Sequence record: PQ511146.1
DNA: 64,000 bases
From: Escherichia phage NHEP1
Direction: 5' to 3' (one strand)
Shown here: positions 11,058-55,270 of the stretch, piece after piece
Layout of the letters: each line of letters starts with the position of its first letter
Position numbering within the stretch: the first letter of the stretch is position 1
Notes under the pieces: generated by a model
Databases searched by the model: none
Told to the model about the DNA's origin: nothing
Seen by the model: the letters and a program-made list of their open reading frames with translations, nothing else
Program-made: the position numbers and the translations under genes

Positions 11058-11063
11058 AAAAGG

Positions 11064-11160
11064 TGCTAGGTGATGGAATCGAACCACCTATGTATTCAAC
11101 GACTACCTCGTCTATTTTCAGGATTAAAAATCCTCGCCCTTGCCAAAGGGCTTACCTAGC
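11064..11160 (-). tRNA. atypical tRNA-like gene (anticodon-loop-like UUUUUAA, possible tRNA-Lys-UUU variant or pseudogene) with about 30-nt extra region
   Basis: Good acceptor (GCTAGGT/ACCTAGC), D arm (GCCC-TTTGGCAA-GGGC) and T arm (GGTGG-TTCGATT-CCATC), but only a 4-bp anticodon stem (AGGA/TCCT), 97 nt long, no encoded CCA. Confidence 0.4.
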
Positions 11161-11463: not shown

Positions 11464-11551
11464 TGGTGGTGAGTGATGGAGTCGAACCACCCGAATCGCA
11501 ATGATAACAGATTTACAGTCTGCCCCGCTACCCCTACGGAATTAACTCACC
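11464..11551 (-). tRNA. tRNA-Tyr (anticodon GUA), class II
   Basis: Acceptor GGTGAGT/ACTCACC, anticodon stem-loop GCAGA-CTGTAAA-TCTGT (as in E. coli tRNA-Tyr), T arm GGTGG-TTCGACT-CCATC, CCA; D arm could not be cleanly folded by hand. Confidence 0.7.
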
Positions 11552-13054: not shown

Positions 13055-13633
13055 TCAACGTTCGTAGTAAATCTTATTCAACATTACCTCATCGTTTGCA
13101 GAAAGGATATCAAGATATGCATCACCAAATCTGCCTGCAACAACCTCTGCATGATACATCACTTCGTTAACATCGTCAAGAGTGATAACCGGATGACCAT
13201 ATCTTTCTGAATATTGTCTCAGTGTGCGATGTAACGAGTCGTCATCATATGCAGACTTTTTAATATCACAAACACGACGAATGGCCTTGATGTCGAAAAA
13301 ACCTGTGCGATACCACCCAAGAAAAAAGTTCCGTGTAGTGTCAACATCTACATCAATACCATTAAGAACCTTATCTACAAGATAGCTGTCATCCTTTGGA
13401 CTAGCGTCCTTAGTGCGAATGTAGTTGCCATCTTTTCCAGGTGATAGCTCCTTCTCATCACCAACCTGCATGCCATCATTTGGCGGTGTTAGCCACTTAT
13501 CAGGATGCTTACGATCACGAGCGTTAGAATGATTACGCTGGAAACCTGGCTTCCACTTGAAAGTTTTCTCCATCTGTTCTTCATTCTGATAACGTTTTGC
13601 AATCTTTTCACTGGCATCTTTGCGTGAACTCAT
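13055..13633 (-). CDS. hypothetical protein
   Basis: 192-aa minus-strand ORF with AGGAG near start; no motif recognised. Confidence 0.5.
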   Translation of the reverse strand: MSSRKDASEKIAKRYQNEEQMEKTFKWKPGFQRNHSNARDRKHPDKWLTPPNDGMQVGDEKELSPGKDGNYIRTKDASPKDDSYLVDKVLNGIDVDVDTTRNFFLGWYRTGFFDIKAIRRVCDIKKSAYDDDSLHRTLRQYSERYGHPVITLDDVNEVMYHAEVVAGRFGDAYLDILSANDEVMLNKIYYER

Positions 13634-13740
13634 AGCAGACTCCTCTTCAAGTTATAGAAAAACTCACTGTATCGCTTTGTAACGAGCTTTTCTATCAAAC
13701 TGGTGCGATTGCCTTACTTGGTATAGTTTATATAGCTGTG

Positions 13741-13990
13741 GAGCGATTTAGGGGCCTTCTTGTCAGTTTCCACACATAAACTTTATCCGAACTCGCGCGG
13801 GAGGCTCTCAACCGACTCCTTCCGGCGCTGGCAAGCTTTCGTCGGTGGTCCACATTAGTGCTCGGCCTTTGGCCTGCGCTATCGCTTCGCTCCCACACAT
13901 GTTAACAGTCCTGCATGTATGCACTTCTGTTATTGTGTGCACTATGGAGGCCCGGCATCTCGCCCCTCGTAGGCGAGTGCCAATGAAGGG
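13741..13990. other. GC-rich ORF-free island (candidate structured RNA or eroded gene)
   Basis: About 250 bp visibly GC-enriched in an AT-rich genome, no ORF of 60 aa or more in any frame; nested hairpins such as GGCCC...CTCGCC-CCTCGTA-GGCGAG...GGGCC. Confidence 0.3.
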
Positions 13991-14141
13991 CCGACACTAC
14001 CCATGATAAGTAATAAATTTAAAACATGGTACTTAGGATCTAGTATATTCTACATAAGTTAAGTATATGTACTTTAGTACCATAAGTACTAGATCTTTTA
14101 TTTTTTTTTATTATTTAGTTATTTTAGTTATATTCTTTATG

Positions 14142-14224
14142 TGTCCGTATCACGGACAGTTAGTGTCCGTATTACGGGCAGATGTGTCCGCGTGACGGAC
14201 AGTGGTGTCCGTATCACGGACAGT
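14142..14224. repeat. four-copy array of 18-bp palindromic iterons (TGTCCGTATCACGGACAG family)
   Basis: Copies at 14142-14159, 14165-14182, 14186-14203, 14207-14224 (first and last identical, two with 2-3 substitutions); each an inverted repeat; AT-rich tract 14095-14140 upstream. Confidence 0.8.
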
Positions 14225-14297
14225 TACTAACCTCTGTGCCATAGTGAACATAAAACATACAAATCCTTATAGTACAGATGTTTAAGTTTTTACTGGT

Positions 14298-14648
14298 CTA
14301 ACCAGTTGTTGACATTCGAATAACTTCTTCTGGTGGCAAAACTTTGGAAAATGTGCATCTTTTACCTCTCCCTTGTGTGGATATTTCAACCACTCCTGCA
14401 CATTCTAAAGTTTTAACGCACGCTGCTGCTTTTGTTTTCTTTATCCCAACATCTGCTGCAATTTTCCTTGTGCTGGGTGTGAAGCGTGAATTTTCTCCAA
14501 GCTTATACCAGTTGTGCAGGTAGCAGTATACAATCTTGTCATATAAGTCAAGAACAACAACCTCCCCAGTCGTGTCATTCAAAACTTTTGACATAGACAG
14601 TATTTCAAGGGGGACTTTAAGATATAGCAGCTTATCCCCATCTTTCAT
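14298..14648 (-). CDS. putative DNA-binding protein (helix-turn-helix)
   Basis: 116 aa; HTH-like segment TRKIAADVGIKKTKAAACVKTLECAGVV; gene ends 74 nt from the iteron array. Confidence 0.4.
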   Translation of the reverse strand: MKDGDKLLYLKVPLEILSMSKVLNDTTGEVVVLDLYDKIVYCYLHNWYKLGENSRFTPSTRKIAADVGIKKTKAAACVKTLECAGVVEISTQGRGKRCTFSKVLPPEEVIRMSTTG

Positions 14649-14695
14649 ATCTTCTGATTCTCCTTGTGTGGCAATTTTCTTTAAAATAGCAGGGA

Positions 14696-15250
14696 TTACT
14701 CCCCGCTGTCAATAGCAAGACTCATTGCAATACGGTATGCCTCTTCTAATGGTAAGAGTCTCCCCCACACATCCCAACCGACATCAAACTGCCTGCCAAA
14801 CAACTGCTGCGTGGTTCCGTGAGCATGACCGAACAGTTGGACTGATCCGTGAGGCTTTCTGTTCCACTTTGCAAACTGGTAATGGCTCATACAGATCAAA
14901 TTCTTGTTGTGGCGAAGCTCGTAATAATCTACAACCTCATGACCGAACTCTTTCATAATTCTGACAGTCGTCCTTGTGTCATGGTTACCACGAACAAGAA
15001 TAATATGTCCGTTCAACATATTTAGAACATCTGGAAGCAATTTGTTGATATTCTTATCATTAGTGCACGCAATATCCCCCAAGTGAAACACAGTGTCTGC
15101 AGGTGACACAACAGAGTTCCACTTGGTGATGATTCCCGCATTCATACTGTCAAGATTGTGATCATACTGAGATCTGTGTTTTTGACATGAGTCGAACTCC
15201 ATTACCCGCTGGTGGAGAAAGTGTGTGTCGCTTGTTACAAAGTATTTCAT
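14696..15250 (-). CDS. calcineurin-like metallophosphoesterase (RNA/DNA end-healing phosphatase candidate)
   Basis: ORF trimmed to ATG 15248-15250 (MKYFVTSDTHF...); motifs SDTHF, GDIA, GNHD typical of the metallophosphoesterase fold. Confidence 0.7.
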   Translation of the reverse strand: MKYFVTSDTHFLHQRVMEFDSCQKHRSQYDHNLDSMNAGIITKWNSVVSPADTVFHLGDIACTNDKNINKLLPDVLNMLNGHIILVRGNHDTRTTVRIMKEFGHEVVDYYELRHNKNLICMSHYQFAKWNRKPHGSVQLFGHAHGTTQQLFGRQFDVGWDVWGRLLPLEEAYRIAMSLAIDSGE

Positions 15251-52763: not shown

Positions 52764-54191
52764 CACACAAGTCTGCTTTGCAGGTTTAGCTGCTCAGCTA
52801 AGGTTCTGGAGGCACCTATAACATCTTCCAACTAAATTTCCTACCAACACAGTTACTTACCTACCACACATGACTGTTTGCTTGTTTAGTGAGCAGTCAT
52901 CACTTGACATTCTTGCCTATCTTGATAAAATTAAGTTCTTCTCTTTTCTTTTACCGAGTAATTCGGGTTTTCTGTTCTCTTCGGTTTGAAGGGGTATGGA
53001 GATACACCTGAGTGAACAGGGTGAACAACCGAACCTTTAGCTATGGCATTAGCATGGCGAAGCGGACGGGTGACGAAAGAGGGGCCGGAGGACACCAGTC
53101 ACTGCCATATAGTATATGGGTGATAACCTGAAGAGTCTGAATAAGTGTTTAAGTACCAGTCAGAGGAAAAGGTGAATGGTAGCCGAAGGGGGAGGGGGGT
53201 TTCTTATATCTTTAATTTGTATACTTTATATACACTTGTAAACCAATTCAATTAGAATCTGTTTACCACACAAAGGGGATGGAGACAAATATCACCTATT
53301 AAACTTGAATTATTTATAGAAAATACCACAACACCCGTTAAGTCTTTGATTTTACACACAAATCTTACAAATATCCTACCTCCACATTTAACATACTTGT
53401 AACATATTCCATATCCTACCTGCCTGATCAATTTACTCCATCACATTCCCACATTTTCCCTGTCTGTACTACCCCACCCCCGCCGGGAGTCCCGTCATAT
53501 CTGGCTTTCCAGCAAATATCACACCAACAAATATCATCACCTGAAGAGGGTTTCATCCCATAATACCTGCCTTACCTGAAGAGCGCTTCATACACCACGT
53601 AAATTTTTTAATTGACCCCTCCCCGCCGCCAGAGAGGTTGGCTTTTCCCACACAGGCCTGAAGAGTCAGCCAGAAATATCTGAACAGGCAGTTATGTCCC
53701 GATTTTGTGCTTGTCCTACAGGAGTGCTGCCAGGCGGACGGAATGGGAATACTTCTCATTCTTATAATAATTCTCAAATATCGAGGCAGTGAGGCAAATT
53801 AATAGGCCAGGCCGTTCACACAGTGGCACAACATTTGCAATCTATCTTGTGTGGATGAATGAGAATACCTATCATTGTGAGAATGGTTATCATTACGGGC
53901 AATTTAACATAATACCCATTATGCGCACCACTGGCGATACATACAGGGATTGATAACATGGGTTACTGTTTACGCATATAACAATTATATTTCTTACTAT
54001 TTGTGTGGGATATAGTTAGCAACCAATAGATTAGATATTGACCTGCAGACTTCTGACCGTCCAGACGTCTAAACGCCCACACAACAAGGATTATACATAC
54101 ACTCCTGCATGTAACCAGGGCCGCAAAAATGCTACCATACCAGTTTGTAAATTTTTCATGCAGCACTTGACAAAGAGGAGAAAAACTTGTC

Positions 54192-54250
54192 TGACACAAT
54201 GTGACAATTTTGTCACTTTTGACACTTTTACCTTTGACACAATATGACAC
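54192..54250. repeat. cluster of TGACA(C) iterons
   Basis: TGACAC at 54192, 54220, 54235, 54245, GTGACA at 54201 and inverted copy TGTCAC at 54211, all within 59 bp. Confidence 0.75.
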
Positions 54251-54330
54251 AATAACGGCTGTTACTATTCCATATCTCACTGTTTACGCCTGAATAGTTT
54301 ACGCAAAAACTGTTTACACAGAGATGATAA

Positions 54331-54608
54331 GCCATGCCATTCGTTTGCATGAAAACAATTAACAAGATAACAATTGACAAGCTAACAGCCAACAAGCTGA
54401 CAGTTAATAAGTTAATAAGTTATGACATAATATAAAAGCAGGGCAACTATTAGAAGATCTATAGTTGCCTTGCTTGTTATGTCATGATTAACTAAATACA
54501 AGGCAACTATGATCTGAATAATAGATTGCAGACAAACTATCACGGGGGTGATTGTTACTGCTTTTATATTATGTCGCGACTCCGTCGCGCCATGCCATTC
54601 GTTTGCAT
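54331..54608. repeat. 20-bp direct repeats flanking an 18-bp inverted-repeat element
   Basis: Direct repeat GCCATGCCATTCGTTTGCAT at 54331-54350 and 54589-54608; inverted repeat GACATAATATAAAAGCAG (54424-54441) / CTGCTTTTATATTATGTC (54559-54576); inner palindrome GGCAACTAT...ATAGTTGCC (54442-54469). Confidence 0.75.
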
Positions 54609-55223
54609 AGTTGCCTTATTGTTACAGGTAAAACAATTACATTATTAATTATTTCTTATCTTTCTCTTAGTCATCTAATGATTCCAGTCAGTATAGTAAT
54701 GTACAGTAAACATTAGACGACTAAATATTTCTCTGTGTATAATAACTTATCGTGACAATTTCGAACTGTTTACGAAAAATGTTGACACCTGAGCTGATTT
54801 ATGTTATGCAGTTTACACGAATAATTATTTTATGCAGGTATTGACTATTCCGTTATTCTGTGGTTGGAATAAATACTTTGCAGACTATAGAATGGCGTGC
54901 GTACGTGAATTCTGAGATCTGGCGGCTATAGTTATACTCGATTTTTCGCGTAGAACACGCTTTCGATGCTGTGTAAGTGTATGACTTATAAAGATTTTTA
55001 GTTGTTGACAAGATATTGGAGATGTGCATCAGGTTAAAATTTGTGCAATAGCGGCATTACGTGCACTTTTGGGAGAGAAAACGGGTAAAAATGGCCCTGC
55101 TACCACACAATGAAAGATTATGCAATAGTTATTTTCCATGTATATTTGTACAGTATGTGGGATTGATGGCTAGTCAATTATTCCACTTGCCAGGTAGGGC
55201 CGTTTATGGTAGGAGAAGAGCAG

Positions 55224-55250
55224 ACAAAAAGAAAGGGGCCTTTAAGCCCC
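55224..55250 (-). terminator. rho-independent terminator at end of minus-strand early block
   Basis: Plus strand A-tract then GGGGC-CTTTAA-GCCCC; on the minus strand a stem followed by UUUCUUUUUGU, right after the 55271-55690 stop. Confidence 0.55.
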
Positions 55251-55270
55251 TTGATAATTCAGTTAAGAAA

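Follow-up and report, generated by a model that had tools for sequence, protein, structure and literature searches.

A candidate iteron-type replication origin beside the small winged-helix gene ORF79 of rV5-like coliphages

We analyzed a 64,000-nucleotide stretch of the genome of Escherichia phage NHEP1 (accession PQ511146.1; hereafter the window), in which four palindromic repeats (iterons) and an AT-rich tract lie beside ORF79, a gene for a small winged-helix protein. The closest described systems are the replicons of PLE, of the staphylococcal RepA plasmids, and of phage lambda. In the Vibrio cholerae satellite PLE, the initiator RepA (N-terminal domain, structure 4RO3) binds semi-palindromic iterons in electrophoretic mobility shift assays, RepA and the iterons are both required for replication, and the replisome used is that of ICP1, with PolA, a gp4d-type helicase-primase, and an SF1B helicase (Barth et al. 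NAR 2020, PMC7145576). PLE RepA was placed in RepA_N by structure and not by sequence, and most RepA_N iterons have a central poly-A tract. The staphylococcal RepA proteins (pSK41, pTZ2162; structures 4PQL, 4PT7, 4PTA, and 5KBJ) use direct-repeat iterons with 8- to 9-bp inverted sub-repeats. RepA_N plasmids carry the origin inside the rep gene, and their initiators have a host-specific C-terminal domain. The lambda ori consists of four iterons of ~19 bp, each with an internal dyad (6-bp arms, 5-bp centre), adjoined by an AT-rich tract of ~40 bp; dimers of lambda O bind these iterons through an N-terminal winged helix, and the iterons directly follow the coding region of the DNA-binding domain. 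For the rV5-like phage group, our literature search found no published description of an origin. The rV5 genome paper sought one by skew and saw only switches tied to the direction of transcription, one of them ~1 kb from ORF79 (PMC3606486).

By its sequence, the window belongs to an rV5-like Vequintavirus: the locus is 96 to 99% identical to that of ~118 Vequintavirus (rV5-like) coliphage records, and the gene order is that of rV5. We read the locus, with some confidence, as an iteron-type replication origin of this rV5-like phage, probably one of several initiation routes. An earlier note had described four palindromic 18-bp iterons at 21- to 23-bp spacing, with the first and last identical, directly preceded by a 45-bp AT-rich stretch, and had taken the region for an origin or a multi-operator control region. 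The four palindromes and the spacing of about two helical turns stand, with the figures adjusted: the conserved core measures 17 bp within a 22-nt unit (Table 1), and the start-to-start distances are 22, 21, and 21 bp. Copies 1 and 4 do share one sequence. Each iteron has 6- to 7-bp inverted arms around a 3- to 5-nt centre without a central poly-A tract, and the centres of the two half-sites are 11 bp apart. With up to three mismatches, the full 17-mer occurs in the 64 kb at the four iteron sites only (0.08 expected from shuffles); with the centre left free and up to two mismatches, the window holds 5 matches, 4 of which are the iterons, against 1.39 expected (0 of 100 shuffles reached 5). The array thus has the form of semi-palindromic direct repeats, each containing inverted sub-repeats of 5 bp or longer, next to a rep-like gene. 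In a few records the repeats bear the uncommented annotation "repeat_region."

The AT-rich stretch of the earlier note measured 46 bp and is 91% AT. The segment that holds it is the least stable duplex in the 64 kb at the 50-, 100-, and 150-bp scales (nearest-neighbour energies), 4.6 to 5.2 standard deviations from the window mean. A generic iteron-type origin has an exceptionally unstable AT-rich element directly beside its iterons, and this is what we observed.

The neighbouring 116-amino-acid (aa) protein, in which the earlier note had seen a segment resembling a helix-turn-helix, has a winged helix-turn-helix, and its stop codon lies 71 to 75 nt from iteron 4, so that the iterons are 3' of the gene. 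Its identity across all 118 records is 88% or higher, and few relatives were found beyond them. A word-indexed protein search returned only relatives at least 85% identical, tblastn against the phage collection returned only Vequintavirus sequences at least 88% identical, and a search of IMG/VR for related loci found none. An exhaustive hidden Markov model search of 1.8 billion representatives gave only 14 relatives, and a profile search added ~25. In Pfam, the matches to DUF6945 (28.5 bits, cut-off 28) and HTH_36 (24.8 bits, cut-off 25) were both at threshold level. The PHROGs family of ORF79 is labelled "replication initiation protein," a name copied in RefSeq records, and other records call it "putative transcriptional regulator." With 29 homologues, the AlphaFold model had a predicted local distance difference test score (pLDDT) of 81, compared with 40 for a 5-sequence alignment, and the modelled protein has the winged-helix fold of the dimeric RepA_N and DnaD N-terminal domains. 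Among solved structures, 4RO3 is the nearest in sequence and also in fold, aligning over the whole 116 aa; the next Foldseek matches were the N-terminal domains of Staphylococcus aureus RepA, including the Rep-iteron complex 5KBJ, and generic winged-helix regulators aligned to a core of ~72 residues only. By sequence and model together, ORF79 is homologous along its entire length to the N-terminal domain with which PLE RepA binds iterons and is therefore an "N-terminal-domain-only" relative of a proven initiator. The chain stops at residue 116, just past the winged helix and one short helix, and longer homologues in other phages carry tails. One relative of 228 aa (P0012) joins an N-terminal GIY-YIG nuclease to a C-terminal DUF6945 winged helix, an architecture like that of ICP1 Odn.

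Set beside the described systems, the locus shares features with each of them. The replisome types that partner PLE RepA are also encoded by rV5, namely, PolA, a gp4d-type helicase, and a PIF1/RecD helicase (PMC3606486). However, PLE RepA has a C-terminal domain and ORF79 does not, in the PLE iteron a poly-A tract lies where 13-bp inverted sub-repeats converge, the arms here being shorter and without such a tract, PLE is a satellite whereas this locus lies in the phage's own genome, and the proteins are only ~27% identical. The staphylococcal iterons resemble those found here in being direct repeats with inverted sub-repeats, but they belong to Gram-positive plasmids and not to a virulent coliphage. 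The lambda ori has the same geometry of iterons and AT tract; it differs in lying inside the O gene, the product of which has a C-terminal domain that binds P-DnaB, whereas the array here is outside the gene and ORF79 has no such domain, and rV5-like phages encode their own replisome.

Next, we compared nucleotide diversity across 16 sequences (the window, 11 GenBank phage records, and 4 assembled metagenome contigs) that are 89 to 98% identical over 2.4 kb. Conservation in related phages, which the earlier note had proposed as a check, was found: the iterons had a diversity of 0.025 and the AT tract one of 0.027, compared with 0.146 in the spacer between iteron 4 and ORF79. Third codon positions had values of 0.12 to 0.15 and first and second positions values of 0.016 to 0.046, and the iterons and the AT tract evolve 5 to 6 times more slowly than wobble sites. 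By these values, strong purifying selection acts on both iterons and AT tract; the spacer evolves neutrally and lies outside the functional module. Within the iterons, most substitutions either affect the N5 centre or restore the consensus arm. Copy number varies among related phages (2, 3, or 4 iterons) through unit-length deletions, seen in alignment to window positions 14141 to 14202: phage YN3 has a 42-bp deletion that leaves two iterons, and "Campylobacter phage C7" has a 22-bp deletion that leaves three, each being either a real variant or an assembly collapse. Because two phage records carry such deletions, four copies are not obligatory, and in-phase change in copy number is typical behaviour of iteron arrays.

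The earlier note had also reported two interleaved inverted repeats before the AT tract, one of which held up. Both arms of the 9-bp pair are invariant in 16 of 16 sequences, and each contains one GATC. The 7-bp pair was rejected as a functional element because a divergent clade breaks it without compensation, changing both partner positions to a non-complementary A/A; it is probably fortuitous.

Published transposon sequencing (HIDEN-SEQ, 2025 preprint) covers phage Bas54 (MaxBurger), which is 96.5% identical to the window at the locus. The ORF79 orthologue, bas54_0212, was hit at 17 of 20 TA sites with a mean count of 13.6, and bas54_0213 was hit at 4 of 7 TA sites with a mean count of 18.1; both were classed as "Intermediate." We found bas54_0213 to be a spurious open reading frame (ORF), all seven TA sites of which lie within or between iterons. 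Mean counts were 135 to 192 in the flanking bas54_0209 to 0211, 0214, and 0216, 78 in bas54_0215 (in a GC-rich block of the same intergenic region, where insertions are tolerated), and 6.0 in the primase/helicase. Against the array's mean of 18, most flanking genes have counts of 140 to 400. Gene and iterons share a ~10-fold, non-lethal insertion cost, and polar effects on dispensable neighbours do not explain it. Removal without effect was part of the outcome that the earlier note had set against its own reading; since Bas54 insertions in both the gene and the repeats carry a fitness cost, the locus is not dispensable in that sense.

We then looked at the equivalent loci of diverged phages. 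In Henunavirus-like loci (Erwinia phage pEp_SNUABM_01 and two metagenomic contigs), an ORF79 homologue stands at a divergent junction, and two copies of a 20-nt repeat, TGCTCAATTTGAGCATAGGC, with 23-bp spacing, follow a T-rich tract directly before the homologue. A third phage group, with homologues of 182 to 195 aa, has two tandem and more degenerate units of the form ...CAGGTACA at 22-bp spacing, arranged as an AT tract, the tandem units with two more distant copies, a strong promoter, and the gene. In all lineages, including three others, the 50 bp before the first repeat were at or above the 99.6th percentile of the AT content of the locus, and tandem repeats meeting the strict definition occurred elsewhere in the relatives' loci once per 95 kb. 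By sequence comparison, AT tract, tandem repeats, and gene thus form a conserved module in which the sequence of the repeat co-varies with the protein.

The same core was also found outside these phages. We scanned public collections for two adjacent TGTCCG-N5-CGGACA units and obtained tandem arrays on 17 viral contigs (IMG/VR, L061 to L077) and 37 bacterial contigs (L024 to L060) from many phyla, with 2 to 7 copies at a period of 20 to 25 bp (for example, L072:1915-1998, L066:6316-6460, L073:2065-2169, and L062:4906-5071). The contigs include unrelated phages, Myxococcales, Burkholderiales, Treponema, and Kiritimatiellae; no similar array was present in 5,426 complete Escherichia coli genomes. 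At each of the 15 loci inspected, a gene encloses the array directly 3' of the segment for its N-terminal winged helix. At 12 of them the array-bearing ORF is the one that matched the family profile, a clear case being a 133-aa HTH_36 protein on a phage contig, and at L062, L066, and L073 it is a rep-like gene with a weak family match and the array 3' of its winged-helix segment. An AT-rich 50-mer (95th percentile or above) lay within 150 bp of 45 of the 54 arrays, compared with 39% of control positions. These HTH_36-type genes and the locus in the window have in common the iteron core, the period, the copy range, a nearby AT-rich tract, and the placement of the array 3' of the winged-helix coding sequence. 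They differ in that the arrays of these genes are translated as a protein linker, which leads into a tail or C-terminal domain with, in many cases, ...PF at its end, and the similarity of their proteins to ORF79 is weak (profile E value of 2.6e-5 to 7.5e-3, hhalign probability of 15 to 28%). Lambda O and RepA_N plasmids are known for this layout, in which the origin sits within the rep gene and follows the part for the DNA-binding domain. In rV5, a gene for an N-terminal domain ends in a stop codon and the iterons begin 74 nt further on, as though this topology had been retained while the gene lost its downstream part.

The ...PF ending recurs in many members of the superfamily, as DEIPF, DEAPF, DAPF, NPPF, QLAPF, RLVPF, and LPPF (proteins P0010, P0017, P0018, and P0024 [L012:2977-3468], L072:1677-2078, L074, and L031), and in the phage proteins P0010, P0017, P0018, and P0024, it is preceded by an acidic stretch. 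The ending is similar to the DDDIPF tip with which E. coli SSB docks many replication proteins, and it is absent from the 116-aa rV5-type proteins and the 105- to 107-aa Henunavirus-type proteins.

Homology to an initiator domain, the weakest duplex of the window, selection, a module retained in relatives, and the same iteron core in rep-like genes of unrelated elements all speak for the origin in the earlier proposal of an origin or multi-operator region. For an origin, we infer iteron binding, dimer geometry, melting, and helicase loading along the following lines. ORF79, expressed early, would belong to the RepA_N N-terminal-domain type of winged-helix proteins and bind as a dimer, one to each 17-bp palindrome, with TGTCCGTATCACGGACA as its candidate DNA target. 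The 11 bp between half-site centres would set two recognition helices into successive major grooves, and the 21- to 22-bp spacing of sites would place four dimers on one face of the DNA. This nucleoprotein array could bend or stress the DNA and so open the adjoining AT tract, and the T7-gp4-like primase-helicase, with or without the PIF1/RecD-like helicase, might then load on the opened or remodelled DNA; because ORF79 has no effector domain, the helicase is presumably not recruited by a C-terminal domain. The origin would act early, and later recombination-dependent or rolling-circle replication would make it non-essential, other initiation routes backing it up as in other large virulent phages. 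We also offer, tentatively and as something we would not bet on, the proposal that ORF79 is a minimal, effector-less initiator: remodelling of DNA alone, beside the extreme AT tract, would load a T7-like primase-helicase or SF1B helicase, PLE-type satellites would imitate an rV5-like system, and the wider superfamily would recruit through an SSB-like ...PF tip that was lost in the rV5 lineage. Initiation by DNA remodelling without protein recruitment has only been conjectured for PLE RepA.

Several observations weigh against an origin. Pfam RepA_N (PF06970) did not match ORF79 at an E value of 1 or below, and neither did Phage_rep_O. ORF79 has no C-terminal effector domain, which members of RepA_N possess, and RepA_N and lambda O initiators are thought to recruit the host machinery through that domain. 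RepA_N-type domains also serve non-initiator uses, such as origin-directed nucleases (Odn). No DnaA box (TTWTNCACA) was found within positions 13500 to 14800, and such boxes are not obligatory where a phage encodes its own replisome. The cumulative GC-skew minimum of the window, at 15 to 16 kb, and the divergent transcription switch are ~1.5 kb from the locus, a position that favours an origin, but the skew switch is confounded with that transcription switch. Neither the gene nor the iterons are essential in Bas54. Moreover, Bas54 has a 2.5-kb intergenic region (the bas54_0134/0135 gap) that tolerates no insertions (2025 preprint). It maps to window positions 52764 to 55270, an AT-rich, ORF-free region between convergent genes that contains the second and third least stable duplex stretches of the window and dense clusters of repeats, and it could be another, possibly the primary, origin or some other essential cis element.

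Within that region, CTGTTTACG-like motifs occur ~5 times, CCTGAAGAG 4 times, and AAGGCAACTAT 4 times in both orientations. TGACAC(AAT) recurs ~6 times with ~10-bp phasing at positions 54190 to 54255. Two further repeats are perfect, a direct one of 20 nt (54331 and 54589) and an inverted one of 18 nt (54424 and 54558). Rfam gave no credible match there (one chance-level mir-4, E value of 0.75).

A further point against an origin bears on the alternative that survives best, in which ORF79 is a transcription factor on four operators with no role in the initiation of replication. In the Henunavirus-like loci, the repeats stand between the AT-rich tract and the ribosome-binding site of the gene, directly before the latter, as autoregulation predicts; a dual role there, as origin and autoregulatory site, is possible. 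Palindromes occupied by winged-helix dimers are typical of operators, many records give ORF79 a regulator's name, its nearest non-Rep structural neighbours are regulators of the MarR/SlyA/CodY/Crp type, and the equal depletion of transposons in gene and sites would also fit a regulator and its operator. We nevertheless consider this alternative rather unlikely, and likewise its specific forms, a roadblock or attenuator for read-through from the ORF79 promoter or the control of an unrecognised promoter in the AT region. The array is 3' of ORF79 and therefore cannot occlude that gene's own promoter. Our promoter search, which covered the sigma-70-like type only, found no conserved one that overlaps or follows the array; the sole nearby match (14245 to 14273, + strand) is in the neutrally evolving spacer. 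The genes downstream are dispensable in Bas54, with normal insertion counts, so misregulation is an unlikely cause of a 10-fold loss of fitness. Furthermore, the full-length homology of ORF79 is to an initiator domain and not to regulators, and a plain operator predicts neither an extreme AT tract in each lineage nor the AT enrichment at the arrays elsewhere.

Less probable still is that the phage captured a replicon of the lambda-O/RepA_N type (from a plasmid, satellite, or temperate phage) of which the locus is now a decaying relic, the rep gene being truncated after its N-terminal domain. The phage would then replicate from elsewhere, for instance, from the 2.5-kb essential region, and protein and repeats would be accessory or competitive at most, perhaps as a decoy that titrates or blocks a related replicon or satellite, an idea to which we give equally little credence. 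That ORF79 is no more than an N-terminal domain, in contrast to the longer genes that enclose the array in elements sharing the core, would fit a relic, as would the non-essential locus, its variable copy number, the separate essential non-coding region, and the action of RepA_N domains in phage-satellite conflicts. Yet iterons, AT tract, and protein are under strong purifying selection in the sequences compared, insertions cost ~10-fold in representation, the module is kept in at least three diverged phage lineages, and the E. coli genomes hold no array that could be a satellite's target; the relic and decoy readings fit these data poorly.

A packaging or partition site (pac/terminase recognition or centromere-like) bound by the winged-helix protein fits poorly as well and is very improbable: repeat arrays with small DNA-binding proteins do occur at pac and par sites, the terminase gene is ~4.5 kb away, and the linear record MG065672.1 ("Campylobacter phage A141") begins at window position 14226, the outer edge of iteron 4, with the remainder of the locus at its other end (probably an assembly break), but the homologues of ORF79 are initiator domains and not small terminases or ParB/ParG, a virulent phage needs no partition, a pac site should be essential and insertions are tolerated, and other records of the genus start at unrelated positions.

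Table 1. Features of the locus, in window coordinates
Feature	Position	Strand	Remarks
rV5 ORF77	13055-13633	-	
GC-rich non-coding block, conserved	13740-13995		GC 0.51-0.62, compared with ~0.42 around it
AT-rich region with 9-bp inverted repeat	14026-14095		arms GATCTAGTA (14037-14045) and TACTAGATC (14087-14095); diversity 0.055
7-bp dyad ATGGTAC / GTACCAT	14026-14032 / 14077-14083		probably fortuitous
AT-rich tract, 46 bp	14095-14140		91% AT, T-rich on + strand; candidate DNA-unwinding element; abuts iteron 1
Four iterons, core TGTCCG-N5-CGGACA (17-bp palindrome)	14142-14158, 14164-14180, 14185-14201, 14206-14222		
22-nt repeat unit, four copies	14141-14162, 14163-14184, 14184-14205, 14205-14226		
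Spacer, iteron 4 to ORF79 stop codon	14227-14297		diversity 0.146
ORF79 gene, 116-aa winged-helix protein (rV5 ORF79/gp075; bas54_0212)	14298-14648	-	proposed iteron-binding initiator
Sigma-70-like promoter TTGACA-18-TATTTT, upstream TG	14683-14712	-	10/12 matches; precedes ORF79; rV5 "P76"

The iterons and the AT tract lie in a 660-nt intergenic region between ORF77 and ORF79, in which we found no terminators and no conserved promoters. The small intergenic ORFs (rV5 ORF78; bas54_0213 to 0215) were rejected as genes because they show no codon periodicity and one of them sits on the iterons. The link between the GC-rich block and the candidate origin is uncertain. Its diversity is 0.057, about half the neutral level, and rV5 has an 18-nt deletion within it; as a structured RNA, it has a single compensatory pair, and only its + strand folds better than shuffles (z-scores of -3.07 on the + strand and -1.51 on the - strand). 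Rfam gave no match at the locus beyond a chance-level rli43. In the surrounding region, the minus strand carries the terminase, spanins, tRNAs, small ORFs, ORF77, the long intergenic region, ORF79, a phosphoesterase, and polynucleotide kinase, and the plus strand continues with RNA ligase, Sir2, and others. ARAGORN called a 99-nt tRNA with a 4-nt anticodon (atcc) at 11062 to 11160 on the minus strand, where other records have a 97-nt tRNA-Lys, and Rfam a further tRNA (39 bits) at 11467 to 11551 on the minus strand that ARAGORN did not call and that related records give as tRNA-Tyr. The name "Campylobacter phage" stands on 18 database records of rV5-like coliphage genomes, of which C7, the one inspected, is flagged UNVERIFIED.

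Where the search for an origin in the rV5 genome paper failed (PMC3606486), the locus offers a candidate of ~130 bp with a named candidate binding protein, in phages that are common candidates for biocontrol and therapy and are poorly studied. Reading the repeats as iterons would account for the "Intermediate" class of both bas54_0212 and bas54_0213, the latter being the iteron array and not a gene. The locus also links a phage protein family known at the level of a domain of unknown function (DUF) to the experimentally characterized PLE RepA, and it brings together many uncultivated phages and bacterial elements through one iteron core. Iterons, an AT tract, and a winged-helix Rep protein are textbook architecture; what would be unusual here are an initiator without an effector domain and the wide phylogenetic spread of the iteron core.

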